Shown here in pieces: positions 6,740 through 57,285 of a stretch of DNA of 64,000 nt. The notes below the pieces were generated by a model. That model was not told where the DNA came from. It saw only the letters and a program-made list of their open reading frames with translations, and made no database searches. Source of the DNA: a virus (Duplodnaviria > Caudoviricetes); the IMG/VR virus record IMGVR_UViG_3300025961_000012, positions 13,109-77,108 of that record. The stretch is one strand, 5' to 3'. Within the stretch, counting starts at the first letter, position 1, and each line of letters starts with the position of its first letter. The position numbers and the translations under genes were made by a program.

Positions 6740-6768
6740 AGTGGTGTTGAGGTTCGTTACGCATTGCG

Positions 6769-6801
6769 AGCGTCAGCGTGCCCACACTATTTGTCAAGCG
6801 G
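6769..6801 (-). promoter_or_regulatory. CCGCTTGACAA-type promoter (TTGACA-N17-GACGCT)
   Basis: TTGTCAAGCGG at 6791-6801; nAnnnT hexamer at 17 bp; upstream of the metallopeptidase operon. Confidence 0.6.
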
Positions 6802-7008
6802 TCTTTTGGCTTCGCGGTATGGCTTGAGTGCGTCACGCAATTTATTCAGGCGAGCGCACATCTCCTGGCCGTCTCTTTCGTTGTCAGCACTGATGTCCAC
6901 AGGCCAATCGGCTGTCGTGCCCGAGTTGTCGTGAAGGAATTCTTCAAGCTCGTCGGCAGCGACGACGATCTTGATAAGTTTGGCGAGATCGAACGAATCC
7001 AGGTTCAT
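6787..7008 (-). CDS. Hypothetical protein (73 aa)
   Basis: MNLDSFDLAKLIK... start at 7008 coupled (ATGA) to the stop of 7005-7184. Confidence 0.65.
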   Translation of the reverse strand: MNLDSFDLAKLIKIVVAADELEEFLHDNSGTTADWPVDISADNERDGQEMCARLNKLRDALKPYREAKRPLDK

Positions 7009-7184
7009 GCCGCCCTTCGCCGCGGGTAGCAATGCGTGCAGAGATAGCGGCCGGTGTACCGGCGCCCGCACCGCTGGCATTTGCCCTTGCGCTTGTTGCG
7101 GATTTGAGCAAGGCGTTGGCGCGAGATTTTGATCCTGGGATTGTCAGGATGAGGGTAGAGGTAAACACCGTTGACGTTTGGCAT
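7005..7184 (-). CDS. Small basic Zn-finger protein, 59 aa (below the ORF-track cutoff)
   Basis: Hand translation: MPNVNGVYLYPHPDNPRIKISRQRLAQIRNKRKGKCQRCGRRYTGRYLCTHCYPRRRAA; two CxxC pairs; first gene after the leftward promoter. Confidence 0.7.
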   Translation of the reverse strand: MPNVNGVYLYPHPDNPRIKISRQRLAQIRNKRKGKCQRCGRRYTGRYLCTHCYPRRRAA

Positions 7185-9537: not shown

Positions 9538-11107
9538 ACACGAGTCTTGGTTTCCCGTCTCCGACCGTTGGCTTGAACGCGGTCTCCGCAAGTTCCTGGC
9601 TGCCCTCCATCAACAGAATGTAGGTCAACGCATCCAGAATGTGCCGATGTGTCCCAGTCACTTCTCCGTCCTTGCCGGTCGCCGCGTTCTCGATGGCGGC
9701 AATGATACGCGGGCATTGGCTGCTGACGAAAAATCTCTTCTCCTTGATGAGCCGCCGCAAAATGCGCTGGCGCGTGCGCACTGAGCCCTTGGGCTTATGG
9801 ACGCCCTGCATACGGATCTTGCCGTTTGTCGCTGCGAGCACCTCGAGGTAGTCGTACCCAAGCCCGGTCGTGCGATAGGTGTTGAGCGCCGTGTCGTCTG
9901 CGTAATGGGTCCAGCCGAACTTGCGTCCATAGACTTTCTGCAAATCGTCTTCCATCAGGCGCAGCATCTCGACGCCGAGGTCGGAAATCTTGATCCGCTC
10001 GTTGATGGATTCGATCTCCCGAAGGGCCACCCACACAGGCCATTCGATGTCGTCAATGGTCACGAAGCGCTTTTCGACTATGGCAAACCCGTGGTTCACT
10101 GAGCTACCCAGGTCTGAACCTGTGAACAGATCTGTCGTCGTCGGTGACAATTCGATGCTCTCGCCATTTTCCGGGTCCTCCTCGATGACGTGAATGTCGC
10201 GGCTGAACACGTCGGCGAAGATTCGGTTGGCGCCGCCGCTGCCGGCCACCCATTTGCCCTCGACGTCTCGCGCGTACTCGCCCGGGTCGCCTGAGTGCAG
10301 GGCCTTGCGATCCTCGATTTGATCCGTAGTCAGCCCCTCGTTGTCCTCGAGGAAAAATTCCATGAGACGAAGCGATTTCTCGAATTTTTCCCGGCAACGT
10401 TTGATCTCCTCGCCCTGCGCCCTGTTGTTGTCGGCGCCGGTCAGCGTCACGGCGGACCAGTCTCGCTTATACCAGAACTTGTATATCCACGATTCCTCGC
10501 CTTCGACGGCCGGGTTTGTATCCGCCAGCCACAGATGCTGCCACGGCTTCAGGTGCGGCATACGCAATTGTTCCCAGGAAACGGTGAAGATCCGCGGGTC
10601 CTTAAAGTTGCCCAGCTCGATCAGCCGGATCCCGCTCCAAAATGAATCCTTGAGCTTGGTCTCGATCTCGCAGTCATGTTCAACGGACAGAATGCGTATC
10701 TCGCTTTCCCCGCCCCACGCGTTGCTAAACCGACAAAACGGCGTGCGCGTCCGACCGTCAGTCTTGAACCCCGGGATCCCGTCGCCGTCGCGCGTCGTGT
10801 ATTCGAACCCGATGCCGGCATCGATCCACCGCGGCAGCACGTATTCCGTGAGCCGTTGTTGCGTCCCTGAGTCCGTGGTGTTGCGCAGTGTCTTGTTGAT
10901 GATGGCAAACCGGCCATTTGGTGTCTCCCAGAGGTGGCGGATCATCCTGTCGTCGCACCCAAAGCTCTTGGCGCTGTAACGCGGCCCGCTCACCAGGACT
11001 GCCGTTGGCGAGTTCGGGTGGTTTTTGCCGGCGTCCTGCTCTGTCCCGATGTTGAACAGGATTCGCTGCTTTGTGTAGAGCCAGTCCGGGCTCCATGGCT
11101 GTGACAT
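9524..11107 (-). CDS. terL: Terminase large subunit
   Basis: Walker A-like VLVSGPRYSAKS, Walker B-like IRLIE, coupling motif LADTNP, RNase H-fold nuclease motifs GSDLG, YADD, HILDALTY; start 11107 or 11128. Confidence 0.85.
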   Translation of the reverse strand: MSQPWSPDWLYTKQRILFNIGTEQDAGKNHPNSPTAVLVSGPRYSAKSFGCDDRMIRHLWETPNGRFAIINKTLRNTTDSGTQQRLTEYVLPRWIDAGIGFEYTTRDGDGIPGFKTDGRTRTPFCRFSNAWGGESEIRILSVEHDCEIETKLKDSFWSGIRLIELGNFKDPRIFTVSWEQLRMPHLKPWQHLWLADTNPAVEGEESWIYKFWYKRDWSAVTLTGADNNRAQGEEIKRCREKFEKSLRLMEFFLEDNEGLTTDQIEDRKALHSGDPGEYARDVEGKWVAGSGGANRIFADVFSRDIHVIEEDPENGESIELSPTTTDLFTGSDLGSSVNHGFAIVEKRFVTIDDIEWPVWVALREIESINERIKISDLGVEMLRLMEDDLQKVYGRKFGWTHYADDTALNTYRTTGLGYDYLEVLAATNGKIRMQGVHKPKGSVRTRQRILRRLIKEKRFFVSSQCPRIIAAIENAATGKDGEVTGTHRHILDALTYILLMEGSQELAETAFKPTVGDGKPRLVSMRL

Positions 11108-11445: not shown

Positions 11446-13845
11446 ATGATCGATGTCCGGATCCTAAAGAAACACGGCTGTTCCGCGGAGGCGTGGAGAA
11501 AAATCTTCGAAGGGCGTATTCGCGAGCGCCCGCAGCGAAAGAACGGCATCGTCGAGAAAACTGCCGCGCAAAAGGACAAGATTGACGCCCTGATGGAGCG
11601 TATCTGGGATCGAATTGTTTGCGGCCGGGACTGGAATTTCGCCAACTTCACCACGATCCACGCGATGGACCTGATCTGGGACGCCCCGTTCCGGCAGGTG
11701 AGTCCGACGCTGATTTCGTCCGTGTGCGCCAAGCACGGGAAGAACACTGAGGAGGTAAAGAGCGCCCTCAAGGGGCTGGGGTTGGATCTTGATTCGGTGC
11801 TCGTGCCGACAGACAAGCGCGACCCGAAGACGGGCGAATTGATCCAGGCCGTCAACGTCCCGAGCTTCTTTTCCGTCATGGTCCCGCTGGCGCGCGCCAT
11901 GGCAACGTCCCGCCGGGCGCGCATGATCAACGATCGGAACCGAGATCCGTTCTTCGAATTCAAGGCGGCCACTCAGAGCAAGCTGAACCGCGTGCGTTGC
12001 GAGGTGCTCACCAGCCGCATCCAGGAGACGTCCAAGGCGTACGACTATCTCGGCATCGTCAACCAGGCCGTGCTCCAGATGTTCCTTTACCCGACGGGCT
12101 GCCTGCTGTTCACGAAGGAGGAATATGATTCCTGCGAGCAAATGCGGCTCGACAAGGACGGCAAGGAGGAGAAATACATCGTCCGCGAGGGCCTCCGCTA
12201 CCACACGCCGCACCCGGCCCGGACGTATTGCGACATGGCGCACCCGATGCGCACGTTCAACACGGACACGGGTTGCGAGTTTGCCGGCCACTGGCAGGTC
12301 CTTCGCTATGGCGATATTTACGACAACGACGGGTTTTACAACAAGGACAAGATCAACATCGGCGGGCTGGGCTGGTTCAATTCATTCCCGTCCTTCTGGC
12401 AAACCGTCTACACGGGCTGCGCGCTGAAGATTCCAAGCGTCGATTTCACGGGGAAACCCGAGGATCGCGAGGAGTTCATCTCGAATTCGTTCTATAGCGG
12501 CGACATGCGCGATCATTCCGTGATGCTGTGCGAGCACCGCGAGAAACTGATCCCGAAGGATTGGGGGCTTGGCGATTACCAGTACCCGATCTGGTGCCGA
12601 TTCGTCGTGGCCGGCGACGGAACGATCGTTTACGCGGCGCCCATGGGCTACACGCCCGTGTGCGTGTTCAAGGACAACGGCGACGACAAGCGCGTGGCTG
12701 ATGCCTCGCTGGTGCTGCAGCTCGCTCCCTATCAGGACCAGCTCTCCAACCTGTTCACCCAGTTCCTGCTGGCTGTGAAACAGAATCTGGCGAATTTCAC
12801 GATGGTGGACGGGGCCATCGTCGACGACGCGACGATCAAGAAGCTCACCAACGACGGGGAAACCTATTTCCGCGGGCTGAACATTTTCCGTTACGACAGC
12901 AAGACCTTGTTCCGATTGCAGACCGACGCGCGGCAGGCCGTGATCTCACATCGTTTCGCGCCGATGGATATAAATGGCATTGTTTTGGCAATGAAATTGA
13001 CCATCGACATGGCCGAGCGCGTGTTGCAGTTCAGCGCCCAGGAAGTCGCCCAGGCGGCGAGCCACGAGCAGACCAAGGCCGAAATCGATCACGTTGCCGC
13101 CTCGACAACGAACATCGTTGAATACACCGGGATCCCGCTCGACGCCGGCATGAACGCGATGGCGCATCAGAATTACGAGGCGCTGATGAACTACGGCCAG
13201 GATGAGTTTTACGCGCAGATCCCCAGCGACCACGAACTGACCGAGGAACAGCTCACGGCTCTGGGCATCACCCAGGACGAGGACGACAAGGAAGAGACGC
13301 GCGACAAAAAGGTCCGCGTGAAGATCAAAAAGAAATCGGCGATGCAATTGGACAGCTTCGCCACCGTGCCACCGACCAACAAGCGGCAGACCAACTGGGA
13401 AGCTGCCCAGGCGATTTCGCAGTTCTACGCGACAATCCTCAACAATCCGGTCGTGCAGATGGCGCTCGGCCCGAAGCAAATGGTCGAGATCGCCAATCAA
13501 ATTGCCAAACTGGCCGGGTTACACTTGGACGCCGACCTGCGCGATATGACTGCCGAGAACCAGAAGAAACAGGCCAACGACCTGCTCAAGCAGGCTGTCG
13601 ATGCCGTTTTGGGCATTGTCCGAACCGAAACCAAGCAGGGTTTGGAGGTGATCATGTCCGAGATAAAAGACGTGACAATGAAGGTCGACGCGCTTACCAA
13701 GGCGTTCGCACAGCATGTTGCTTCAACTTCAAACCCGCTCGCTGGACCCGACGGAGGCGGCATCCCTCCAGTCATGGCTCCAGTCGCCCCAGTCGCTCCT
13801 GTTCCGGCAGTTGCTCCAAACCCAATGCTTGCTGGCGCAGTTTGA
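11446..13845 (+). CDS. Putative portal protein (799 aa)
   Basis: Size, position at the head of the portal-scaffold-capsid block, helical C-terminal region and Pro/Ala tail; no family-defining motif confirmed. Confidence 0.65.
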   Translation: MIDVRILKKHGCSAEAWRKIFEGRIRERPQRKNGIVEKTAAQKDKIDALMERIWDRIVCGRDWNFANFTTIHAMDLIWDAPFRQVSPTLISSVCAKHGKNTEEVKSALKGLGLDLDSVLVPTDKRDPKTGELIQAVNVPSFFSVMVPLARAMATSRRARMINDRNRDPFFEFKAATQSKLNRVRCEVLTSRIQETSKAYDYLGIVNQAVLQMFLYPTGCLLFTKEEYDSCEQMRLDKDGKEEKYIVREGLRYHTPHPARTYCDMAHPMRTFNTDTGCEFAGHWQVLRYGDIYDNDGFYNKDKINIGGLGWFNSFPSFWQTVYTGCALKIPSVDFTGKPEDREEFISNSFYSGDMRDHSVMLCEHREKLIPKDWGLGDYQYPIWCRFVVAGDGTIVYAAPMGYTPVCVFKDNGDDKRVADASLVLQLAPYQDQLSNLFTQFLLAVKQNLANFTMVDGAIVDDATIKKLTNDGETYFRGLNIFRYDSKTLFRLQTDARQAVISHRFAPMDINGIVLAMKLTIDMAERVLQFSAQEVAQAASHEQTKAEIDHVAASTTNIVEYTGIPLDAGMNAMAHQNYEALMNYGQDEFYAQIPSDHELTEEQLTALGITQDEDDKEETRDKKVRVKIKKKSAMQLDSFATVPPTNKRQTNWEAAQAISQFYATILNNPVVQMALGPKQMVEIANQIAKLAGLHLDADLRDMTAENQKKQANDLLKQAVDAVLGIVRTETKQGLEVIMSEIKDVTMKVDALTKAFAQHVASTSNPLAGPDGGGIPPVMAPVAPVAPVPAVAPNPMLAGAV

Positions 13846-44817: not shown

Positions 44818-45848
44818 TGGCCATCGTTTACGCCGACTCGCCCGGGGCCGCCTTCTCCCAGGCTGCAAACCTAGATCAGCAGCGCGTTCAGAATTATCTG
44901 AACAGCATTGCGGCGAATCGAAACGCGCAGTTGCAGGGCTGGCAGGCGGCCGAGCGGCAGGCTGCGGTCGCCCAGGAATTGCAGCAGCGCGAGCAGCAGC
45001 AAATGATGCAGCTCGCCCAGCAGGCTGCCCAAGCTCAGGAAAGGCAGCGTCAGTTTGCTGAAAACATGGGGTTATCCCGGGCTGTTCTCGCCGAAAATAC
45101 CAGGCACAACATTGCAAGCGAGGAGAAGCCAAACGCCAGCGAGGAGTCGCTCCTGTTCAAAAAACAGAAGGACGAGCAGGCGCAGAACGATCAGGCGGAT
45201 TACGCGGCCAACGTGGCCGATTTGCTCAATCGTCACGCGGGACTTCAGAAATTGCTGGCGCAGGTGCCGACGACGCCGCAGGCGCGCGGCGCGGCCGTTG
45301 GTGGGGCCACCGGTGAAGGGTTCATGCCGAAGACCGAAAACAACCTGTTGCGGGCAGCGGCTTATGTGGTGCCGTTCCTGCCCACGTTCAATCGCGCGCA
45401 GGACACCAAAGCCAGCAAGGAAGCTGAGGTCAAACAGAACATCGCGGCCACAGTTGCGGGATTGCCCGCGGACTTCAGTGGCGCCGATTCGATCGAGGAT
45501 TATGCGAAGATCGCGGCGGCGGCCATCAACGCGCGCATCGCTCAGTTGCCAGAGAAACCGAAGGGCGATCTCGCAGGCATTATTGGGGTGAATGATCAAG
45601 GCGTGCATGTCCCGCTGATCCAGCGCCCGACGCCTGCCCCGTTGGAACTCACGCCAGCCGAACGGCCGGCCAATGAGTCCGTGAGCGCGCCGGCGGCGAA
45701 TCCTGTCCCACCACCACCGATCGCGCAGCCATCGCTTCCTTACTTTCGCAATGACACAGAGATAAAGGCCGCCAGGATTCCGAGTGGAACGAGCATCATG
45801 CTTTGGGATCCATCGCAGAAGAGATACCGGCGCGCGGTGTGGGAGTAA
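44817..45848 (+). CDS. Putative internal virion / DNA-ejection protein
   Basis: Q/A-rich coiled coil; coupled to the previous gene. Confidence 0.55.
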   Translation: MAIVYADSPGAAFSQAANLDQQRVQNYLNSIAANRNAQLQGWQAAERQAAVAQELQQREQQQMMQLAQQAAQAQERQRQFAENMGLSRAVLAENTRHNIASEEKPNASEESLLFKKQKDEQAQNDQADYAANVADLLNRHAGLQKLLAQVPTTPQARGAAVGGATGEGFMPKTENNLLRAAAYVVPFLPTFNRAQDTKASKEAEVKQNIAATVAGLPADFSGADSIEDYAKIAAAAINARIAQLPEKPKGDLAGIIGVNDQGVHVPLIQRPTPAPLELTPAERPANESVSAPAANPVPPPPIAQPSLPYFRNDTEIKAARIPSGTSIMLWDPSQKRYRRAVWE

Positions 45849-45849
45849 C

Positions 45850-48800
45850 ATGCCAGCCGTTTTCGTTGATGAGGAACCGCAGGCCCATTTCGTAGACGAC
45901 GCAGGGCCAGCGGAGGGTCGCGCCAAGTTCCTGGAAGATCTGCCGGCGCCGACGCCTCCACCCATTCCCGCCGAGCAGATAAGGATGACGCTTGAACCTG
46001 GTGTCACGGAGGGTAAAAGCGCCGAACAGGCCGACATTGAAAGGGCCAACAAAATTGGGGCCCCGCAGGTCGAGCTGAACAAACAGTCTGCGCCGTTCAA
46101 TTTGCGGGAACATCTTTCGATGGCCCGGGAGCGGCCGAGTGACAAACTCCAGTACTGGGCGCAACGCATCCCGTGGAGCCCCGCGGGTATCATTCAGCCG
46201 TTGGAGGTGAAATCAGCGGCCGATCGTATCCAGGCCGGGATCGGAGAACCGAAAGACTTTGAGAAGCTTTCAGATTTCATCGTCTCGGCGGAGAGACAGC
46301 AGAACGCGGGAGTGATTAGCAAGGCTGTGGACATCGCCACCGCGCTGCCCGCTTTCGCTGCGGAATTTTCAGCCACAGGCGGTGCATTCACGGGGACCCG
46401 CGCGGCCGCACAAAGGGCGGGTCTCGCCGCTTTGGAAGAGTCCGCAAAGGCAGTTGCTGGAAAGGCCGCGCGCTACGTGGCAACAAAGGCAGCCGAGGCG
46501 CCCGCATTTATTGCCGGTGCGGCTGCGCAAACTCTCGCCAACCCGAAGCTCATTGCTGAGAACTTTGTCCAGAACGAGCTGAATCGCGTGAAGTTTAAGG
46601 AAGGCGATCAGGGCCAGATCGAGACGATCATCAAGGATGACGACGTCGGCTTTGCGGGGAATCTGCGTAACTCTTTCCTGAAGGCTGGCTTTGACATCGG
46701 AACAGAATACGCGGGTGAACTCCTTCATCCACTCAAGGCGGCCATCGCCGCGCGCTGGATGAATGCCGTGCCCGGCCGAACGCCTGGCGCACTTCAGAAG
46801 GCGCTTGATGCGAGCGGATGGCATGGGGTGCTGGGCGAAATGTTCGAGGAACGGTTGAACGAGTTTGCGGCACCGCTCTACGGGGAGAATTATCAACCAC
46901 CGAGCCCTCAGCAGCTCATGGCTGAGGCGCTGGCTTTCAGCGTGCCAGGCACCGCTGAACGGCTTTTGTCTGGCCGCGGGCCAGCTATCGAGAAAGGTAA
47001 AGAAAATGCCACTACGCAAAGGACCGAACAGCCACGGACACAACGTGGAGAAGCTAATGCGGGAATACAACCAGTCGGGGAAAATCGGGTCAACCAACCC
47101 GTCGAGCAGCCACCACGCGCTCCGGATAGCGAACGCAATCGCGTACCGCCTGGAGAAGTCCCCCCGCAAGTCGAAACTCCGCCGGGGACGCCGGTAACGA
47201 CGAAGGCGCCGTTGGCCGTTCGCATCCTGACGGCTCGAGGTGTGGCGCCGGACGTCGCTGAATTTGTGGCCGCGCGCGCAGGCGACAAGCCTGCCAACGA
47301 GACGGCGGAGGATTACCGGACGCGCGTCAATGGACTGCACGACGAGTTTGGATTCAAGGTCCCGACCGAGGTAAACCCGGCGAGTAGTGAGGCGAGCCTC
47401 CGGGCGTCAGCCGCGGCTGAGGGTTTCACGGAGGAGCAGATCCAGAACACGCTCGCGAAGGCAAAGGCTGCCGATACCGCCGTTCATGCGGCGAACACGG
47501 CGCTCATCGGTCGGATTCAGGCGGCGCGGCAGCCAGCGACAGTCACTCCTGAACCCCCAACGGCGCCCCCAACTCTGCCCGATGTCGCAGCGCGATTTCT
47601 TCCAGAAGACGCCCGCAGGCTGCTGCAGGAGCACGCTGGCAACATCGCGAATGCCTCGGCGGCGCTGGGTCAAATTGTTCAGCGTCATCTGGATTCCGGC
47701 GGCCAGGCCATTCTCTACGTTGACGGGAAAGCGGTGCCGATCGTGCAGGCAGAGAATGGAATGCTTCGGGACAAAAAGAATCAGCAGTGGGGAACGATGC
47801 CCCTGTTCACGGGCAGGACCAGTCAGAACAGGCTGGACCTGCTTCCGATTTCTGCAACAAAAGCACCAGTTCCTGCAACGATCCCGCCTGTTGTTGCAAC
47901 AAAACCGCTTGTTGGTGAGACAGAAGCAGATTTGCGCGAGCGAATCTTGGGTCCTCCGAAGGATGCCCCGCAGGAGGTGGTGCTCGAGCGACTCAAAGCG
48001 CGCCTTTTGGAAGCGAAAAATGATGGCGGCGAGGGTGGTGGATTCCATGCGTCCGGCGCCTGGTTTGACATCGGCATTAATTTTCCGACTCCAGGTAAAT
48101 CCTACATCAACGGCAGAGGCATCACGATCAACGTTCCAACCGCAGATCTGAAGCGCGGCGATCTGTCCAATGCTGAGATCCTGATCGGGGGCAAGAAGAC
48201 GCAAATTGAAGACATCGCGGAAAAGCTCCCAAAGGCACCCCTCCCAAAAGAGGAAGGGGTCAAACCGCCGGAAGTGAACTCGGAACAGGCGATCCGTGAT
48301 CTCATAGATTCACCGGAAACCACTGCGCAGAAGTCGGTTAAAATGCGCCAGATGGCGGAGGCTGCTGGCATCGAACTCAAGGCCATGCAGGAGCGCGTCG
48401 AGGCGGTCCTCGTGAAGATGGCCAATGAGATCGCGCGCAACGAAGGGTTACGCCCGACGACTCGGTTTCATGCGCTGGTAAACCTGTACGAACGGCAACC
48501 GCTGTTCTCCGCGCGCACCAGCACCAGCGTTGCAGACCAAGCTTATTCGACACCGGCGCCAATAGCTTTCGCCCTGCGGCACATGACCGGTGTCACCAGT
48601 CAGACGCCGGTTTATGACGCGACCGCCGGCAATGGGATGCTCCTGCTGGGCTCGAAACTCGGTGAATCCGTCGCAAACGAGATCAACCCAAATCGCGCGC
48701 AGGCGCTGCGCGATCTCGGCGTCGGCACGGTCACACAGAATGACGCGACGAAATTCGTGCCGGCGGAGGATTCTCCCGTCGTCCACCTCAACCCGCCGTT

Positions 48801-51800
48801 TGGAAGTATCCCCAATACCAATTACGACGGATATGGAATCCGGAAGCTCGAACATCTGATCTCGCTCAAGGGACTCGAGGCCATGGAGGATGGAGGTAGC
48901 GCAGCCATCATCCTGGGCGCAGCGCTTCACGAGAAGGAACAGGGCAAAGGCGCGCAGTGGATCTTCGAGAACTATCTGTATGGGCACTACAACGTCGTGG
49001 ACAATTTCGAGATCGCTGGCGATCTCTACGCCAAACAGGGCGCAAAGTTTCCGGTGCGGGTGCTCGTCATCGTGGGCCGGAAGGCAACGCCTGTAACCGG
49101 CGAGTTCGCCCCCAAACACGTTGATCGTCTCACAAACTGGGATGACGTTTGGGCGCGCGCAGAAAAGGCACGCAATGAAGCTGAAAGAATCCGATCAAGT
49201 CTGGGCACCGGTGGACCTGGACCAATATCTCCTGGTATTCCCGAAGGCGCACAGAAACCCGCCCCGGGACCAGGACTCGTTCCTGTTCGACCAGGTGAGA
49301 CTGCTGCGCCGGCTGGTGGAGGAGGCCTCCGACGGGGAAATCGAGGAGGGAAATCGACGGCTCCAGGAGGACCTACCGGCGTCGGAGAGCCTGTGGCTCC
49401 CGCCGGACCTGCTGCGCAACCCGGCAACGCCGGGCAACCTGCTCAACAACCCGGCGGAATTGGGCAGCCAACTCCACCAGTGGAAGGAAGGAGTAGCAGC
49501 GGCGCTGAGGATGAAGTCCCTCCCAGTGCTGGAGGCACGGAAGCTGGCGGAGGGACTAAGCCTGGAGTCGTTTCTAAGCCGGGTAATATAAAGGCCGCAG
49601 ACATCGGCGACTTGAGCCTCGATGACCTCGACGCTCTGCTTGCAGGCACGCCAGAAGAACAACCGCCACCGGCGCCCGCGCCTATACCTCCCGCTCCGGA
49701 AGCGCCCTATCACTACCCGCAGCCCCTGGAAGGGCAGCCTTACGAGCAACCGCCACAGGCGCCTTATGGCTATCCTGAACCACTGGAGGGGCAGCCTTAC
49801 GAAACAGAGAGGGCCACCACTCCGCGCCCGCCGCGGCCACCGAGGAAACCTCCGACTCAACCGCCGAAGAAACCGAAGCTTTCGGATGTCGGCAAACATC
49901 TCGTCGAGGGTGCCAAGTCATCGTTTGAAGCACTGGATCAATTGTTCGGCCGCGGGACGCACATGGGCGCCCTTGGTCCTACTTTCGACGAAAATACGTA
50001 TGCTGCGGCAAAGCCCCATTTTGCAAAGGCGTGGAGCGAATATGTGAAGGCTGGGGCGACCCTTCAGGAATACATCCAATACGTCCTGGGCCGATTCGGA
50101 AATGGCGTGAGGATTTATCTGAAACAGTTTTTGGCCGACATGCAGGAGGAGGCAAAGGCCAAAAAGGAAAAACCGAAGGCGACAGAAACGCAGATCCCAT
50201 ACGAGCAACGTGCAGAAGGATACTCGTTCGGGCTCCTGACACCCAGCAACATCGGAAATGGGACTCATGCTGCACTCGATGCGCTTAAAGCTCGCGTCGG
50301 TCCACTTACAGATTTTGTTGCAGACCGGCTGAACCAATCGCCAACGGAACTGCAAAAGGGACTTTCGGGAGAGCAGATTGACGGCGTGGCGCTGGCCATC
50401 GACCAGATCGAGAATGGCGGTGCGCTCATCATCGGCGACGAGACTGGCATCGGTAAAGGGCGCCAGGCGGCGGCCATCATTCGTTACGCGCATCTTCAGG
50501 GGAAGATACCCGTGTTTTTCACGAAGGACCCGAAGCTGTTCACCGACATGTACGGGGATCTCGCCGACATCGGGACAACGATTCGACCGCTCATTTTCGG
50601 CGATCCATCCAAGGCATCCATCGTGAACGAGAACGGTGATGTCATCGTCAAGGCGCCGACGAAGAAACGCCAGGATGCCATCATGCGCGACATCCAAGAG
50701 CGCGGAATACAGGCGGCTGGTTACGACGCCATCTTTTCGACCTATTCGCAGGTCAACGTCGAAAATGAGCGGCAGAGATTCCTTGAGGGGCTGGCCCATA
50801 ACCAGGACACCATCCTGATTCTCGACGAAGCGCACGAGGCGGCCGGCGACGGGGAATCCTCGATGCAGGCGGCATTCATGCAGGGCGGCCAAGTGAGGAG
50901 GGGCAGCGGCGCGGACCGCACGATCGTCAATAAGGTTGGGCTGTTGAACGCGCCGGGCACGGCGGAAGGCCGCGGCGGCGTCACTTACCTGAGTGCGACC
51001 TACGCAAAGCGGCCCGACAACACGCCCCTGTATTTCCGAACGGCACTCCGGAAGGCAGCGCAATCCTTCCAGCAGGTCGTCGATGCGATGAAGAAAGGCG
51101 GCGTGGCGCTCCAGCAGGCCGTCAGCGAAGCCCTTGCGGCAGCCGGCCAGTATGTCCGTCGGGAGCGGGATTTCAGTGGGGTCCGATACGAGCTGAAGAA
51201 AATCGCCGTTGCCGATGAGCCCGCGCTCGTGCAGCAGGTGGACGGAATCACGGATCTACTGGGCCAAATCGTTCAGTTCAGTCATTCCGTCCGTGAGGCT
51301 GCCCAATCCGCGGGCGGCGCAACCTCGACGGCGATGTCTGATAACGCCATCGACGTCGCGGATTTTGCAGCGCTGGTTCACAACCAGGTTGGCCAGCTTT
51401 TGCTTGCGGCGAAGGCTGACGAAGTAGTGAAGGAAGCTGCCGAGGCGCACTCCCGCGGTGAAAAGCCTGTCATCGCGTTGATGAACACGATGGAGAGTTT
51501 CCTCGATCAATATACGACCGAGCACAACATCAAGCCGGGCCAGCCGATTCAACTGCGGTGGCATGAGTTGCTCAGATACGCCTTGTCCCGCACGCTGCGA
51601 GGGAAGGTTCAACAGCCGAACGGCGATACGGTCATCGTTCAACTCACACCTGAGGAGCTGGGATTGAGTCCTCAGTTCGAGGCGATCATGGAGCAGATTG
51701 GAGAACTCGAGACGGAATTTCCTGTCAGCCCGATCGATTACATCGTGCAGCAGCTCGAGGCCAAGGGCGTCAAAACCGGTGAACTCACCGGGCGCACGAG

Positions 51801-54800
51801 CGGGATCAACTATACAGATGTCAAAGCCGGACAGGGCACCTACAAGCGGTTTCCGAAGGCCAACAAAAACACGCTGGTAAACGGATTCAATGGCGGCGTT
51901 CTCAATGGCTTGCTGTTAAATGCGAGCGGTTCAACCGGCCTCTCCATCCATGCGTCCGAAAAGTTCTTCGATAAGAAACCGCGGCACATGGTCATCGCCC
52001 AGCCGGCGCTCGACATCAATGTGTTCGTCCAGACGCTCGGGCGTATCAAACGCACGGGCATGGTGCTCAATGGCGAGAACCCCGACGGTTCGAAATGGGG
52101 CGCGCGCTACACGCATCTCGTGCTGCCGCTCCAGGCGGAGATGCGGCCGGCGGCCGTCACGAATCGGAAGATGAAGTCGCTCAACGCCAACACCACGGCG
52201 GAGAGCAAGAGCGGCGTGAAGATCGAGTCGGCCGATTTCCTTAACAAATACGGGGACGAAATTGTTTCCGAGTTTCTCGACGAGAATCGGGAGTGGCAAC
52301 CGCGGCTCGGGCTGTGGATCGACCATAATCAGGACGGCACGGTGAAGGTCCAGAACGACATCGCGCGCAAGTTCACCGGGCGTATGTCGCTGATGCCAAA
52401 CTCTCAGCAGGAGGAAGCCTACAATCAGATCATCCCAGCCTATAATGAATTGATCGACCGCCTGAAGACGACGGGCGAATACGACCTCGACATCGTTGTC
52501 CACAAGGACTGGGACGGCACGCAGTTAAGCGACGACCAGCTTGCCCCCGGCACCGACGAGTCATCGATCTTCACAGCGAGCGTGCGCGCACAGCGGTGGG
52601 AGATCACCGACAACCGGCACGTCCCGACCGGTGAGGAGATGCTTGAGGAATTCAACCGCCAGACTGGCGGCGTCGAGAAGCTTCGCGAGAACTGGCAGGC
52701 GCAGATCAGGGAAACGGAGAAGCAAATTAGAGATCGCATCGCAGCGGCTGACAAGGCAATCGACGAAGCGGCCAACGAACCGGATCCCACGAAGCGCGCA
52801 CTTCTGGCAGCGCGGGCACAGAATGAGATGACCGCGATGCTTCAGGCTCAGGCCAAATGGTCTGACACGAAGGACACGCTCAATCGCATCCTGTCCATGG
52901 CAGGGGATCCTGTGGAACTCGAGGACTCCGAGACCCACGAGACATTCGACGGGATGCTCGTCGGGTTCAAAATGCCGAACCTTGCCCGCGGGCTGCGCGT
53001 GTCACCGAGCGCCTACCACCTGCGCTATCTGATCGATGCCCCTGGTGGAAAGATGTTTCTGCGCGGGTCGATGTTCCCTTCGAAATGGACACAGAACCGT
53101 AGCGACCGTCCGCTTTCAGATTTCAAGGGCGCCCGGGCAGGCCAACGGTACGCGCGCTGGGTCGTCACTGGCAACCCGATCAAGGCTTACGAGGCAACTG
53201 GCGGCCGCGGGAAGATGGTGAGGTTCCAGTCGCGCGACGGGCAAACCATCACGGGGCTGATCATGCCGGTGAAGTGGGACATCTCGAAGCTGGCGAGTGA
53301 TCCGCGGCTCGAACTGGTGAGCGGCGCCGCCATTGCCAACTTCCTGCGCGCGCAACGCGGAGATCAGAATCATGCCGTGGAGAGCAAGAGCGGCATCGTC
53401 CGGATCAATCGCAGCAGCACAGGGGCCTATGCGATTTCCGTCCCGGCAGCCAGACGCACGGGAGGCGATTACTTCCTGGACCTTGCCCTGCGGAAGATCG
53501 TTGGGGACTTCAACAAGACCGGCGCTCGAATGCTGGCCCAGGTCGCGCCCGACAAACTCGTCGCGGCAGCCGATCGGGTCATGCAGATTGCCGGCGAGCG
53601 ACTTCGGGTGTCAGGCAAGGTCAGTCCGGAGATGATCAGCGTCATCGAGGCAGCCAACAAGCCAGGCGGCACAGCATCTGACGTCGCCAACAGGATTGCC
53701 GAGGCCCTCAACAGGCTGAAGTCCAACCGGCGCCCGGGCGATTTGCAGTTGTTCGGGCTGGTCCCGTTGGTCTGGGACAAGGCCATCGACATTGCCCGCG
53801 GCATCGTGCTCGCCGGCGGCAAGGTGGCTGACGCGGTGGCAAAGGCCATCGAATACATCCGGGCCAACCATAAGGGCGACTGGGATGAGGCCGGCGCGCG
53901 CGCGGCGCTCGAGACTGCCGCCCAGAAGCCTGCCGCCACGGAGGAAGGGCTTACCGAGCCAGCCGAAGGCGAACAACCACCTGTCGTGGACGATCACTGG
54001 GTTCCGACGCAGGTCAAAGGCGTGACGTGGTACGTGCGCGACCGGGACAAACTCTCCCCGGAGAGCACTGCCCGTTCAATCGATGCCGCCGAGGCTGCTT
54101 TTAAGGCAGCCGGGTTCGACTCTGAGCGCCGGACCATGTTCGACCAGGGCGATCACCAGACCAAAAGCATCCTGTTCATTCCGGAAACGGAGAACGCGGA
54201 CGAGAAGGGGCGCAAGCTGGCCGAGGTGCTCGAGCGCGAGATTGCGACCCAGCGCGAGGCCGGCAAGGGCGCCGATCACGTCTCGACCCTGATCAACTCT
54301 GTGCGTGAGGGCTTCGACCAGCCTGGATCCGCCTTCCGCCAGATGTCTCAGCAGGTCCGGAACCGGCTGTTTGCTCTCGCCCAAGAGGAAGCGAGCTGGC
54401 GCGGGCGCGCCCTGCGCGCGCTGGCCAATTCCAAGGCCGACATCATTCGCATCGCGCGCAACGTCGACGTCTACCTGCAGCGCATCTACTCGACGGCGTT
54501 TGCCGACAAGGCCCCAGGCGGCGCTGCGGGCGCCAGCGACATTGCTGACGACCTGCGTGCGTCACTGCGCGAGGTCCTGACCGACGAGGAAATCGACCGG
54601 CTACCGGAACTCATCGCGGATCCAGCCCAGCGTGAGCGCATCAAGGCTGCGCTCAAAAAGGCGCTGGAAAAGGTGGCGCCGAAAGGGGCTAAACGCTTTG
54701 GACGCAGGAACTGGCGCACAATCGAATCGCTCATCCAGGGCGGCATCCTCGACGATACCGAGTGGTTCAAGGATCTGGCGCGCAAACGGGGCTGGAAGGT

Positions 54801-57285
54801 CCCGACCGACGCCGAGATCGAACAGATGCGCAAGCTGGCTGACGAAGAGCAGGCGCTTCGAAAGCCGACCGACGCCGAGCTGGCCAAGGTCGGAGAGGAC
54901 CCGAAGGCGCGCGAACGGCTGTTGGCCGACATCGAGGCGGCCACCAGGGAGACGCGGTTCAAGCTGCAGAAGCGCCTGGCGGTGATGTGGAGCGAGATGA
55001 CGAAACCGGTGTCTCTGCGGAATTATTGGGCGCAAAGGCAGAATACCGCGCGGTTCCTGAACGAGCTGATGACGGCCAACCTGCTGTTTCGGGCGTCGTT
55101 CGTCAGCAAACAGGCTATTGACGTGGCGACGCAATGGTTCTGGAGGATGCCCATGAGGGCCATTGCCCAGGCGTTGACCTTGCGCAAGAACGACTTGGCT
55201 GCGGGCAAACAGGTTCGATTCTGGGATGACGCACAGGCGGCGCTTAAGGACATCTACGGTGATTCCATCAAAAGCCTGAAGGTAGCCACCGCGAAGGCGC
55301 GTGCGGCGCTCGCGGGGCGGGTGGAGATCCGGAACGTGGATCGTCTCATGGGCAGCGTATCCGCGCTCGACAGATTGTGGCTGCGTGCGGACCGCGCCGC
55401 GGAGGACGGGCGCAAGGCTGAGGCGTTTATGTGGCGCGCCGTGGCTGCCATCGGCTTCTCGTACAAGGTCGCCGGCGCGTTCGATTACCTGCATGGGACG
55501 CCAGCCGAGTGGAACGAGCGCCGTTTCCGCGTCATCGAAGCCCTCCGAGAGACCGGCGTGGACCCCGCGGCGGCTCGAGTGCAGGCCGGCTGGGTGATGG
55601 ACGGCGCCCTGGCTGAGTATCCAGAGGCAGTCGCCATGACGCGCTCGATGCTCGAAGCCCGCGGGATTCCGTTCACCGAGCAGCAGTTGCGCGAGGACGC
55701 GTGGAACATGGTCGAGCGCAGGCAATACCAGAGGATCGGCGATCTCGGGCTGCCCGTGGACGCCATTCGGGAACATTCGGAGCTGTATCGCAACACGCTG
55801 GGCTGGAACGAGCGCGAGATGCGCGGGCCTGGCGGGCTCGTCGGCACGCTCGTGCATGGGGTTGGCGCCATTGGGGAAGGCATAGGCATCCCTTTGGCCA
55901 TGGGCCGGTTCGGCAACGCCATCGCGATCGGCATCAACCGGCAGTTGCACAAGACGCCGCTGTACGCGCTGGCCAACATCCGCCTGCCGTTCCTCAGAGG
56001 GGGCCAAGAGCCGTCGCCGTGGTCGCGGACCATGACGGACATCTACGAACGGCGCCTCGAGGCTGTGGCCGGCACGATGCTGGGGAGTACCTTGCTGACA
56101 TTGGCTGCGGCCGGACTGCTCAAGGTCTGGCTCAAACCGCCGCCCGACAAGGAAGAGCGCGAGCTGTGGGAGCGCGAGGGGCACAAGGCGGGCACGGTCG
56201 AGATCCCCCTGGGCGACGGCAAATATCAGGTCTGGAGCCTCACCGCGGGGCCGTTCGCGCTCCTGGCGCCCTATCTGGCGGCCGGCGGGGCAATCAACGA
56301 TCTGACCGTCAAACGGGAGAAACAGCAGGCCAAGCTCAATGCTGAGGCGGCGAAGAAGGGGCTGACACCGGCTCAACTGCCACCACCGGACATCTCGGAC
56401 TGGTTTGGTGTGGCCGCCCAGGCTGCCCAAGCATCTGTCCTCGGAAATCGAACGGCGTCCGGCTGGTTCAACAGCGTCACTGACTACGGCACACCCAACG
56501 TGAAGAAGTTCGTGGCCAGCCAGTTCACGCCCATGGTGCCCGGCTTGCCGGCATTGCAGGAGGTTTCCCGCATGGCCGGCGTCATAATCGACCCGAAAAA
56601 GGCCGATGTCATGGATTTCCTAGTGCCGTTGCCGACCTCCAAAGCGCGCAAATACAACATGCTCGGGGATCCGGTGGGCACCCAGGACGACCTGCAGCGC
56701 GTCGTCCAGACGCTCACGGGCGGCACGTATCCGTCCATCTCGCCGGGCCAGGCGCACGAGGCGGACGCCTACAAGGCGCTCTTCGCCACCGGTTACAGGC
56801 CTCCGAGCATCGACCCGAACGCGGGGCATGCCATCGGCGGGGACTTCAGGCCATTCACCGAGTCCGAACTGGAGCGCTACACGGACGCGCGCAGCCGGAA
56901 TCTGCGTGAAGAACTCGGCCGGCTGGGCCCCACGGCTAGCGCCAAGGACGCCCGGGAGGCGTACCAGCGCGCGAACGACGCGGCGCTGCGGGAGACTGGT
57001 GTCACGGTCGCCACCAGGACGACAACGCCCAGCGGCGCCACGGTCACGAGGGTAGCGTCGTCCCGTGGAGGCGTGGGAGTTCCGACCAGGACGACGGAAG
57101 CCCGAAGTGGGACCGGCGGCAGGGCAGCGCGCGGCAGATTGTCACGCGGGCTGCGTGGAGTGCGATTTGGACGGCGGGGGTTGGCCCGGGCTTCAAGGCT
57201 TCGGCTGCAACCGCGGCTCGGGCGCGGACGCACACGCGGATTGTCGCGCGCACGAGTCAGTTCTGCTCGTTCTGCTCGGGTTTGA
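45850..57285 (+). CDS. Giant DarB-like polyvalent protein: N6-adenine MTase, Strawberry-notch SF2 helicase, LPD38-like C-terminus (~3,811 aa)
   Basis: VYDATAGNGML (motif I) and HLNPPF (motif IV) near 48.6-48.8 kb; GDETGIGKGRQ, LDEAH, YLSAT, NASGSTGLSIHA, QTLGRIKRTG helicase motifs; helical C-terminal third; likely start MPAVFVDE at 45850. Confidence 0.9.
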   Translation: MPAVFVDEEPQAHFVDDAGPAEGRAKFLEDLPAPTPPPIPAEQIRMTLEPGVTEGKSAEQADIERANKIGAPQVELNKQSAPFNLREHLSMARERPSDKLQYWAQRIPWSPAGIIQPLEVKSAADRIQAGIGEPKDFEKLSDFIVSAERQQNAGVISKAVDIATALPAFAAEFSATGGAFTGTRAAAQRAGLAALEESAKAVAGKAARYVATKAAEAPAFIAGAAAQTLANPKLIAENFVQNELNRVKFKEGDQGQIETIIKDDDVGFAGNLRNSFLKAGFDIGTEYAGELLHPLKAAIAARWMNAVPGRTPGALQKALDASGWHGVLGEMFEERLNEFAAPLYGENYQPPSPQQLMAEALAFSVPGTAERLLSGRGPAIEKGKENATTQRTEQPRTQRGEANAGIQPVGENRVNQPVEQPPRAPDSERNRVPPGEVPPQVETPPGTPVTTKAPLAVRILTARGVAPDVAEFVAARAGDKPANETAEDYRTRVNGLHDEFGFKVPTEVNPASSEASLRASAAAEGFTEEQIQNTLAKAKAADTAVHAANTALIGRIQAARQPATVTPEPPTAPPTLPDVAARFLPEDARRLLQEHAGNIANASAALGQIVQRHLDSGGQAILYVDGKAVPIVQAENGMLRDKKNQQWGTMPLFTGRTSQNRLDLLPISATKAPVPATIPPVVATKPLVGETEADLRERILGPPKDAPQEVVLERLKARLLEAKNDGGEGGGFHASGAWFDIGINFPTPGKSYINGRGITINVPTADLKRGDLSNAEILIGGKKTQIEDIAEKLPKAPLPKEEGVKPPEVNSEQAIRDLIDSPETTAQKSVKMRQMAEAAGIELKAMQERVEAVLVKMANEIARNEGLRPTTRFHALVNLYERQPLFSARTSTSVADQAYSTPAPIAFALRHMTGVTSQTPVYDATAGNGMLLLGSKLGESVANEINPNRAQALRDLGVGTVTQNDATKFVPAEDSPVVHLNPPFGSIPNTNYDGYGIRKLEHLISLKGLEAMEDGGSAAIILGAALHEKEQGKGAQWIFENYLYGHYNVVDNFEIAGDLYAKQGAKFPVRVLVIVGRKATPVTGEFAPKHVDRLTNWDDVWARAEKARNEAERIRSSLGTGGPGPISPGIPEGAQKPAPGPGLVPVRPGETAAPAGGGGLRRGNRGGKSTAPGGPTGVGEPVAPAGPAAQPGNAGQPAQQPGGIGQPTPPVEGRSSSGAEDEVPPSAGGTEAGGGTKPGVVSKPGNIKAADIGDLSLDDLDALLAGTPEEQPPPAPAPIPPAPEAPYHYPQPLEGQPYEQPPQAPYGYPEPLEGQPYETERATTPRPPRPPRKPPTQPPKKPKLSDVGKHLVEGAKSSFEALDQLFGRGTHMGALGPTFDENTYAAAKPHFAKAWSEYVKAGATLQEYIQYVLGRFGNGVRIYLKQFLADMQEEAKAKKEKPKATETQIPYEQRAEGYSFGLLTPSNIGNGTHAALDALKARVGPLTDFVADRLNQSPTELQKGLSGEQIDGVALAIDQIENGGALIIGDETGIGKGRQAAAIIRYAHLQGKIPVFFTKDPKLFTDMYGDLADIGTTIRPLIFGDPSKASIVNENGDVIVKAPTKKRQDAIMRDIQERGIQAAGYDAIFSTYSQVNVENERQRFLEGLAHNQDTILILDEAHEAAGDGESSMQAAFMQGGQVRRGSGADRTIVNKVGLLNAPGTAEGRGGVTYLSATYAKRPDNTPLYFRTALRKAAQSFQQVVDAMKKGGVALQQAVSEALAAAGQYVRRERDFSGVRYELKKIAVADEPALVQQVDGITDLLGQIVQFSHSVREAAQSAGGATSTAMSDNAIDVADFAALVHNQVGQLLLAAKADEVVKEAAEAHSRGEKPVIALMNTMESFLDQYTTEHNIKPGQPIQLRWHELLRYALSRTLRGKVQQPNGDTVIVQLTPEELGLSPQFEAIMEQIGELETEFPVSPIDYIVQQLEAKGVKTGELTGRTSGINYTDVKAGQGTYKRFPKANKNTLVNGFNGGVLNGLLLNASGSTGLSIHASEKFFDKKPRHMVIAQPALDINVFVQTLGRIKRTGMVLNGENPDGSKWGARYTHLVLPLQAEMRPAAVTNRKMKSLNANTTAESKSGVKIESADFLNKYGDEIVSEFLDENREWQPRLGLWIDHNQDGTVKVQNDIARKFTGRMSLMPNSQQEEAYNQIIPAYNELIDRLKTTGEYDLDIVVHKDWDGTQLSDDQLAPGTDESSIFTASVRAQRWEITDNRHVPTGEEMLEEFNRQTGGVEKLRENWQAQIRETEKQIRDRIAAADKAIDEAANEPDPTKRALLAARAQNEMTAMLQAQAKWSDTKDTLNRILSMAGDPVELEDSETHETFDGMLVGFKMPNLARGLRVSPSAYHLRYLIDAPGGKMFLRGSMFPSKWTQNRSDRPLSDFKGARAGQRYARWVVTGNPIKAYEATGGRGKMVRFQSRDGQTITGLIMPVKWDISKLASDPRLELVSGAAIANFLRAQRGDQNHAVESKSGIVRINRSSTGAYAISVPAARRTGGDYFLDLALRKIVGDFNKTGARMLAQVAPDKLVAAADRVMQIAGERLRVSGKVSPEMISVIEAANKPGGTASDVANRIAEALNRLKSNRRPGDLQLFGLVPLVWDKAIDIARGIVLAGGKVADAVAKAIEYIRANHKGDWDEAGARAALETAAQKPAATEEGLTEPAEGEQPPVVDDHWVPTQVKGVTWYVRDRDKLSPESTARSIDAAEAAFKAAGFDSERRTMFDQGDHQTKSILFIPETENADEKGRKLAEVLEREIATQREAGKGADHVSTLINSVREGFDQPGSAFRQMSQQVRNRLFALAQEEASWRGRALRALANSKADIIRIARNVDVYLQRIYSTAFADKAPGGAAGASDIADDLRASLREVLTDEEIDRLPELIADPAQRERIKAALKKALEKVAPKGAKRFGRRNWRTIESLIQGGILDDTEWFKDLARKRGWKVPTDAEIEQMRKLADEEQALRKPTDAELAKVGEDPKARERLLADIEAATRETRFKLQKRLAVMWSEMTKPVSLRNYWAQRQNTARFLNELMTANLLFRASFVSKQAIDVATQWFWRMPMRAIAQALTLRKNDLAAGKQVRFWDDAQAALKDIYGDSIKSLKVATAKARAALAGRVEIRNVDRLMGSVSALDRLWLRADRAAEDGRKAEAFMWRAVAAIGFSYKVAGAFDYLHGTPAEWNERRFRVIEALRETGVDPAAARVQAGWVMDGALAEYPEAVAMTRSMLEARGIPFTEQQLREDAWNMVERRQYQRIGDLGLPVDAIREHSELYRNTLGWNEREMRGPGGLVGTLVHGVGAIGEGIGIPLAMGRFGNAIAIGINRQLHKTPLYALANIRLPFLRGGQEPSPWSRTMTDIYERRLEAVAGTMLGSTLLTLAAAGLLKVWLKPPPDKEERELWEREGHKAGTVEIPLGDGKYQVWSLTAGPFALLAPYLAAGGAINDLTVKREKQQAKLNAEAAKKGLTPAQLPPPDISDWFGVAAQAAQASVLGNRTASGWFNSVTDYGTPNVKKFVASQFTPMVPGLPALQEVSRMAGVIIDPKKADVMDFLVPLPTSKARKYNMLGDPVGTQDDLQRVVQTLTGGTYPSISPGQAHEADAYKALFATGYRPPSIDPNAGHAIGGDFRPFTESELERYTDARSRNLREELGRLGPTASAKDAREAYQRANDAALRETGVTVATRTTTPSGATVTRVASSRGGVGVPTRTTEARSGTGGRAARGRLSRGLRGVRFGRRGLARASRLRLQPRLGRGRTRGLSRARVSSARSARV
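47006..47197 (+). CDS. Nested small basic phage protein (MPLRKG... family) in the +1 frame inside the giant gene
   Basis: MPLRKGPNSHGHNVEKLMREYNQSGKIGSTNPSSSHHALRIANAIAYRLEKSPRK resembles the recurrent MPL.KG....N...L...GK......A.AIA phage microprotein; AAGGT upstream of the ATG. Confidence 0.65.
   Translation: MPLRKGPNSHGHNVEKLMREYNQSGKIGSTNPSSSHHALRIANAIAYRLEKSPRKSKLRRGRR
49175..49591 (+). CDS. Nested 138-aa helical protein in the +1 frame inside the giant gene's Gly/Pro linker
   Basis: This frame shows genome-typical G/C-ending codons (gtg gac ctg gac...ctg ctg cgc cgg ctg gtg gag gag) while the host frame switches to GGA/GGT/CCT/CCA; AAAGG upstream of the ATG. Confidence 0.7.
   Translation: MKLKESDQVWAPVDLDQYLLVFPKAHRNPPRDQDSFLFDQVRLLRRLVEEASDGEIEEGNRRLQEDLPASESLWLPPDLLRNPATPGNLLNNPAELGSQLHQWKEGVAAALRMKSLPVLEARKLAEGLSLESFLSRVI
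49699..49803 (+). repeat. Imperfect tandem repeat encoding APYxYPxPLEGQPYE twice
   Basis: EAPYHYPQPLEGQPYE and QAPYGYPEPLEGQPYE, 57-bp period. Confidence 0.8.

Follow-up and report, generated by a model that had tools for sequence, protein, structure and literature searches.

The window analysed here is a 64,000-nt stretch (positions 13,109 to 77,108) of IMG/VR record IMGVR_UViG_3300025961_000012, which is 77 kb long, is rated 98% complete and belongs to an uncultivated phage (Duplodnaviria; Caudoviricetes). It contains a giant open reading frame (ORF) whose product, a polyvalent protein, carries an N6-adenine methyltransferase (MTase)-like region followed by a Strawberry-notch-type superfamily 2 (SF2) helicase (Table 1). 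At the junction between these two domains lies a second ORF, encoding the 138-aa protein P0001, which runs in the +1 frame of the giant ORF (45784-57285), its first base at codon position 2 of that ORF, from an ATG at 49175 to a TAA at 49589-49591. This small ORF is complete, on the same strand and wholly contained within the longer one, the layout of an embedded gene, and the last MTase codons (..WARAEKARNEAERIR) overlap both its Shine-Dalgarno (SD)-like motif and its first codons. A nested 138-aa gene at this site had been proposed from the letters of the window (hereafter, the original prediction); its coordinates proved exact, and codon bias, selection and homologues all agree with it.

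Codon usage in the two frames

Over the nested interval, the G+C content at third codon positions (GC3) of the giant frame falls to 0.33-0.45, compared with 0.72 for the whole giant ORF, forming the deepest trough in 11.5 kb. If the same peptide were written with the codon usage of the giant gene, its GC3 would be 0.718, against an observed 0.386. Within the interval, 49% of glycine codons are GGA, 36% of proline codons are CCT and 62% of alanine codons are GCT, whereas GGC, CCG and GCG/GCC dominate in the rest of the giant ORF. The per-frame GC3 plot that the original prediction had suggested thus places the giant-frame trough exactly where the small ORF lies, and the codons of the giant frame are as atypical there as had been claimed, with GGA, CCT and GCT prominent.

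The +1 frame, by comparison, had been said to carry codons typical of the genome. We scored both frames with an index resembling the codon adaptation index and built from the phage's long late genes, on which real genes reach 0.73 ± 0.07 and all 83 off-frame windows remain at or below 0.674. The small frame scores 0.724, within the range of real genes, versus 0.541 for the giant frame over the same bases. By the codon-usage criterion for overprinted genes, the small frame would be the older reading and the giant-frame spacer the newer one.

Nested relatives and selection

A search with P0001 found three called proteins, and retrieval based on the MTase, together with further look-ups, added loci. 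Six more uncultivated relatives have the same ORF at this junction; its start and stop align, it is 137-140 codons long, and the giant frame around it is uninterrupted. Identity to P0001 is 77% in L001, 47% in L006/L007, 47% in L010, 39% in L005, 38% in L004 and 30% in L011 (whose giant protein additionally carries RadC), and the MTases of these nested relatives are 58-64% identical to that of the window. In all six, the first codon lies within the C-terminal helix of the MTase and the last just short of the N-terminal region of the helicase. Across the seven distinct nested loci, window included, we found no stop in either frame; stops in close homologues had been named as the result that would speak against the small gene, and the +1 frame is uninterrupted in 12 of 12 homologous loci. 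Several further database members open with an N-terminal extension, MFGxxxxxxxM, and because the conserved C-terminus of the MTase gives such a sequence when read in +1, we infer that they are nested too. Searches for relatives with tblastn in GenBank phages and PLSDB plasmids returned none, and pattern scans of viral and genome contigs for the family gave no match, the patterns being too strict.

Selection differs markedly between the two frames, with small-frame third positions the most variable. In the least saturated pairs, dN/dS for the small frame is 0.28 (window/L001), 0.25 (L004/L005) and 0.27 (L002/L003, free-standing copies described below), versus 1.45, 1.54 and 2.1, respectively, for the giant frame of the same pairs, values obtained by the Nei-Gojobori method (NG86), which carries a bias where frames overlap and saturates between distant pairs. 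The substitution pattern of the giant frame resembles that of the third, non-coding frame.

The opposite strand was also considered. A 234-aa antisense ORF (window 49195-49899, minus strand) shares wobble positions with the nested gene and has the character of a typical GC-rich shadow ORF; we rejected it as a coding rival, every antisense frame being stopped in most of the 12 loci.

Protein family and predicted fold

An exhaustive profile search of 50%-identity clusters recovered 97 clusters at E < 1e-3 and 73 at E < 1e-10, mostly 135-140 aa long and matched end to end. In an alignment of 53 members, M1 is invariant and W10, P12, P30, L37, L47, L75 and L130 are near-invariant; conserved motifs include HQWKEG and LSLESFLSRLL, alongside conserved hydrophobic patterns. 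Besides Trp and Pro, the near-invariant residues occupy the hydrophobic core, and no active-site or enzyme-like motif is evident. The family is acidic, with a median isoelectric point of 4.65 and a median net charge of -9 (5.1 and -5 for P0001 itself).

Run on the small protein alone with the 53-member alignment, AlphaFold2 predicted two short strands followed by eight helices, with a predicted local distance difference test score (pLDDT) of 97.2 and a predicted template modelling score (pTM) of 0.90, in line with the globular, helical product that had been read from the sequence. A control model of the giant-frame translation of the same DNA, aligned across the seven nested loci, reached a pLDDT of 56 and a pTM of 0.12, a comparison in which the confidence of the small-protein model reflects its deep alignment and the control had 7 rows only; structure appeared in the control only in the last helix of the MTase.

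Neither P0001 nor its family matched Pfam (P0001 at E ≤ 0.1), PHROG or NCBIfam. A profile search of PDB sequences gave partial matches only, the best at E = 0.01; Foldseek comparison of the predicted fold with PDB and BFVD gave a best E above 1; VIA-align against 48,161 chains gave a best Z of 3.0; and ESM Atlas held no match. The fold, as modelled, is without a solved relative. Two specific candidates were also looked for. TnpV (PF14198) matched 0 of the 53 family members at E ≤ 1, and translating the genome that holds the window, together with 4 related records, in six frames likewise gave no PF14198 match at E ≤ 1. The other candidates were Ocr and ArdA, DNA-mimic anti-restriction proteins with a strongly acidic surface that inhibit type I restriction-modification enzymes; chains of this type were absent from the Foldseek and VIA-align matches (best Z 3.0), and no sequence match to them was found either.

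Free-standing and fused copies

Members of the family also occur outside any giant ORF, at L002, L003, L009, L013/L014 and L015/L016, in heterogeneous, mobile-looking contexts that include Sel1-repeat, integrase, DUF932, YbjN, VWA, RHS and helix-turn-helix (HTH) genes. Several of these loci retain pieces of the giant gene when their flanks are read in the giant-equivalent frame: 53 codons of the MTase C-terminus (WPVRVLIVAGRR...VDRLNTWDEVWERSQKAR) upstream of the copy in L015, PAERIRN upstream in L009, and EGTEHQ of the helicase start downstream in L003. Because their flanks keep such relics, at least the copies in L015, L003 and L009 descend from nested ones. A family tree obtained by a quick search on a 137-column alignment is poorly resolved, with nested members spread throughout and interleaved with free-standing ones; since it can neither be rooted nor used to count transitions, we take the direction from nested to free-standing from the relic flanks. 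The copies in L002, L009, L013 and L015 are intact and under purifying selection where the giant gene is gone, and that in L003 is without its first 30 codons. In L003 (region 1-801) and L009 (region 1-294) the copy follows a Sel1-repeat gene, which in L003 is fused to the C-terminal region of a tyrosine integrase; this suggests a single relocation event that then spread.

In two further proteins, P0053 and P0057, the family domain stands in frame at the C terminus. P0057, which adjoins a type I restriction-modification (R-M) operon and an HTH gene, contains in addition a ~74-aa helical domain that recurs (E = 1e-8) in the giant frame of the window, shortly after the nested gene. The neighbours of free-standing and fused copies, among them the RHS, DUF932, YbjN, VWA, Sel1 and HTH proteins and the type I R-M system, offered no functional lead.

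These copies bear on the possibility that the small ORF is the relic of a fusion, a gene that was once functional, for example in a three-gene order of MTase, small gene and helicase, and in this phage is a recently silenced passenger whose DNA now serves only as spacer of the fused giant protein. Such a history would agree with codon usage, which marks the small frame as older and the spacer as overprinted, and with the selection that keeps the spacer frame open in relatives. A silenced gene would nevertheless not be expected to look as this one does: nested copies at 30-77% identity all keep their start, stop and length, and purifying selection is equal in nested (0.25-0.28) and free-standing (0.27) pairs. 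Nor was an unfused three-gene arrangement found, the apparent split at L011/L012 being an effect of gene calling and assembly, and we consider a relic very unlikely. The operon that seemed to be present there was rejected on inspection, the split being confined to the gene calls and the giant frame being open across 1-9123 in L011. L011 and L012 are two assemblies of one sequence; frameshifts interrupt the giant frame in L012 but not in L011, which illustrates how gene callers come to split such loci into separate small genes.

Start of translation

The SD-like AAAGG that had been noted upstream of the nested ATG is present with a 6-nt spacing, and AAGG/AAAGGA-type motifs stand at the equivalent place in L001, L006, L010, L011 and L009; the start codon itself is conserved as ATG/GTG. 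An alternative route is programmed frameshifting (+1 or -2) where the MTase domain nears its end, which would yield a truncated MTase protein ending in the small domain beside the full-length giant protein. Frameshifting that gives two products from a single start is known in phages, and before the ATG the +1 frame runs on without a stop for 26 codons in the window and for up to 338 codons in L006. We nevertheless judge frameshift-fed expression less likely than internal initiation, because M1 is invariant in the 53 members, because free-standing copies start at the same Met, and because no slippery sequence is conserved upstream (GAAAAGG in the window and L001, GAGCGCA in L004 and L005). The proper spacing of the SD-like motif and the +1-frame stop only 26 codons upstream in the window likewise speak against a frameshift, to which we assign little probability.

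Chance openness and the case for a gene

The simplest alternative is that the small ORF is a shadow of the giant gene, an untranslated by-product of Gly/Pro codons whose G/C-rich positions 1 and 2 leave the +1 frame poor in stops. When the spacer peptide was recoded with the codon usage of the giant gene, the +1 frame stayed open in 53% of the trials; with the observed codons shuffled, the probability of an open frame was 0.05-0.25, and over three nulls the probability of no stop was 0.05-0.53, so that openness by itself is not significant. Among the 84 +1-frame runs of the giant ORF, moreover, the open run here, of 164 codons, ranks only second in length, and comparable or longer runs elsewhere span 134 to 258 codons. 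These results weigh against a gene, as do several others: the SD motif is weaker in L004 and L005; no sigma-70-like promoter lies near the small ORF, so that ribosomes must initiate internally on an mRNA already under heavy translation; the bias of NG86 and the unequal alignment depths affect the comparisons given above; and homology lends no support to a function, Pfam, PHROG, NCBIfam, PDB sequences, Foldseek, VIA-align and ESM Atlas all being empty.

Because openness alone is not significant, it is codon bias and the comparative data, and not the length of the ORF, that carry the case for a nested gene. A chance ORF leaves the following unexplained: dN/dS of 0.25-0.3 in the +1 frame versus at least 1 in the giant frame; a start and a stop conserved in 7 nested loci; 97 clusters of constant length and intact free-standing copies; and a pLDDT of 97 together with a giant-frame GC3 of 0.39 where 0.72 is expected. 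That chance openness was merely given the appearance of conservation by a low-complexity alignment artefact is unlikely in view of the hydrophobic patterns and the motifs HQWKEG and LSLESFLSRLL. We regard a chance origin as extremely improbable, and conclude that 49175-49591 is very probably a real, separately encoded protein-coding gene lying out of frame inside the giant gene. This degree of confidence applies to the reality of the gene, as distinct from its guessed function.

The picture that best accommodates these data is one in which the small ORF codes, in the +1 frame, for one member of a conserved ~137-aa family that is under purifying selection and confidently predicted to fold, and in which the giant frame over the same bases evolves like a neutral spacer, constrained only to stay open. 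Synthesis of the small protein would begin internally, at the conserved ATG/GTG that follows the SD-like AAAGG, and the protein would appear together with the giant protein, both probably being translated from the same late mRNA.

The giant frame as spacer

If the giant frame over the nested gene were free of any constraint, stops should have accumulated where base composition permits them. In L004, L005 and L011, which have lower GC3, the codons of the small gene predict 2-5 giant-frame stops and 0 are present (P = 0.001-0.02 by codon-order shuffle, 0.005-0.06 by synonymous shuffle), whereas the giant-equivalent frame of the free-standing copy in L013, of similar GC3, contains 9. Because expected stops are absent in the three nested loci while free-standing L013 has so many, the spacer is selected to stay open, but not for its sequence, and both frames appear to be used.

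The composition of the spacer can be traced to the small gene. Its richness in Gly, Pro, Ala and Arg arises because the first and third codon positions of the small gene are GC-rich (GC1 0.71, GC3 0.78), and the giant-equivalent frame of free-standing copies is likewise rich in Pro, Gly, Ala and Arg. The original prediction had described a Gly/Pro linker in the giant frame; that composition is indeed present, but the linker is largely a by-product, the shadow translation of the nested gene.

Other features of the giant gene

The probable start of the giant ORF is the ATG at 45850. PHROG families 14770, 9133 and 6263 (DNA methyltransferase) match its product at aa 912-1103, and Pfam identifies AAA_34 at aa 1523-1812, Helicase_C_4 at aa 1984-2237 and also ResIII; a Pfam search gave no match in aa 1-872 or aa 2273-3833, where accessory domains of the LPD type, such as an LPD36 on the N-terminal side of the MTase, were looked for. 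The giant protein thus has the DarB-type dyad, an adenine MTase with an SF2 helicase fused C-terminally in one polypeptide, its frame open throughout. Identity of the MTase domain between the window and L004-L008 is 44-64%.

Table 1. Coordinates of the giant gene, the predicted nested gene and associated features in the window.
Feature	Position	Strand	Description
Giant ORF, 3,833 codons	45784..57285	+	Polyvalent protein: N6-adenine MTase-like region, then Strawberry-notch-type SF2 helicase
MTase-like domain and its C-terminal helix, giant frame	48517..49190	+	PHROG, aa 912-1103
SD-like AAAGG	49164..49168	+	6 nt before nested ATG
Predicted nested gene P0001, 138 codons + TAA	49175..49591	+	+1 frame; acidic protein, uncharacterised family of ~137 aa
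Gly/Pro/Ala-rich disordered spacer	49191..49590	+	Giant frame; shadow frame of nested gene
Further giant-frame spacer	49591..50301	+	Pro/Gln/Tyr-rich repeat, basic Pro-rich stretch, ~70-aa helical domain
Strawberry-notch-type helicase core, giant frame	50350..52494	+	Pfam AAA_34 + Helicase_C_4

Between the nested stop and the helicase, a further ~180 residues of giant-frame spacer include the repeat PLEGQPYE, present twice. This entire segment is missing in the close relative L001, where the helicase N-terminal region comes directly, and by eye its ~70-aa helical domain also seems to occur upstream of the MTase in Bacteroides phage BS-TP4. The giant protein ends (window 57000-57285) in a tail with an extreme content of Arg (RGRLSRGLRGVRFGRRGLARASRLRLQPRLGRGRTRGLSRARVSSARSARV). 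Further, shallower dips in giant-frame GC3 (0.45-0.52) are seen at 46873-47169 and 47387-48151; the longest +1 run, 47375-48148 (258 codons), holds an ORF of 254 aa that starts from GTG (47387-48151).

Small ORFs in other MTase-helicase spacers

Two distant giant relatives, in which no member of the family is detectable, have a long +1 ORF of their own in the same spacer. In L008, whose MTase is 44% identical to that of the window, a +1 ORF of 128-129 codons occupies positions 6764-7150 (probability of being open by chance, 0.04-0.09), and the spacer shows the same giant-frame GC3 trough (0.38-0.42). The cultured Bacteroides phage BS-TP4 (PQ571277) has a 121-codon +1 run in its spacer, the longest of 200 (probability 0.002-0.03). 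The ORF there (L019 5597-5956; PQ571277 about 10,032-10,391) has 119 codons from ATG, is unannotated and looks acidic and helical. We rejected both as remote members of the P0001 family, the hhalign probability being below 1%. The L008 ORF has no other homologue on record, that of BS-TP4 has no other match in the phage collection, and the spacer of Acinetobacter phage MD-2021a contains no such +1 ORF.

A broader reading, which we hold to be doubtful, is that the MTase-helicase spacer of DarB-like proteins serves as a general harbour for unrelated families of +1 small proteins in phages, plasmids and conjugative elements, each an obligatory co-translated partner of the counter-defence machine; the candidates would be the 137-aa family and possibly the ORFs of L008 and BS-TP4. 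If this were true, what looks like a linker would be the translated shadow of a hidden gene, not a designed tether.

Discussion

Complete genes embedded in another frame of a phage gene have a classical precedent in Rz1, which lies in the +1 frame inside the same-strand gene Rz among the spanin genes of lambda and its relatives, shares its late transcript and is missed or mishandled by gene callers. Like Rz1, the gene described here sits wholly in the +1 frame of a same-strand gene of a tailed phage. Rz1, however, is a small outer-membrane lipoprotein whose partner is the product of its own host gene, whereas P0001 is a cytoplasmic-looking, acidic, helical protein of 138 aa that is at most a putative partner of the giant protein; and, unlike in Rz, the giant frame over the overlap is a neutral, disordered spacer of a 3,833-aa protein.

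A second parallel is viral overprinting, in which a disordered region of one protein lies over a folded protein in another frame, as with the hepatitis B virus polymerase spacer over preS/S. Here, too, one frame is structured and constrained, and the other is low in complexity, atypical in codon usage and tolerant of change as long as it stays open. Unlike in those cases, the host is a double-stranded DNA (dsDNA) tailed phage, codon usage suggests that the folded frame came first, and the family also persists as free-standing genes derived from nested copies.

The giant gene itself belongs to a described class. The MTase-helicase dyad is a feature of 'polyvalent proteins', with P1 DarB as the archetype, and its Strawberry-notch variant was reported 'in a few instances' (Iyer et al. 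2017, PMC5512222). The order in the window, adenine MTase and then SF2 helicase, is that of the DarB-type dyad, but PMC5512222 mentions no overlapping or nested gene, the word 'overlapping' occurring 0 times in it; the nested family is not among Pfam families, LPD domains included, and a nested gene like this one was not described in anything that literature searches turned up. Out-of-frame embedded phage genes are thus known as a kind, and what is new here is the protein family and the class of host gene.

Giant injected MTase-helicase proteins are thought, after the P1 DarB archetype, to protect incoming DNA (PMC5512222). Our tentative guess is that P0001 serves the counter-defence toolkit of polyvalent proteins as a binding module without catalytic activity, acting either on the MTase-helicase dyad, in its assembly, packaging or regulation, or directly on a component of host defence. 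It is possible, as a hypothesis, that the protein is an inhibitor or chaperone that keeps the MTase-helicase inactive until injection, the role that the original prediction had favoured; this idea is weakened somewhat because free-standing copies are autonomous. Any role strictly dependent on the giant protein is weakened for the same kind of reason, intact free-standing copies surviving where the giant gene is gone, and because the near-invariant residues (core hydrophobics, Trp and Pro) hint at no active site.

A gene of this kind is invisible to standard gene callers, and members of the family entered the gene calls only when a short contig had truncated the giant ORF or when they stood free; hence a family of ~100 clusters with a confident predicted fold carries no name. 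The locus also provides a clean, well-replicated instance of long same-strand dual coding in dsDNA phages, in which one frame is constrained and predicted to fold and the other is a neutral spacer that need only stay open. As a conserved protein apparently co-encoded at the exact MTase/helicase junction, P0001 is an obvious candidate for a cofactor of the giant protein or for an extra effector.

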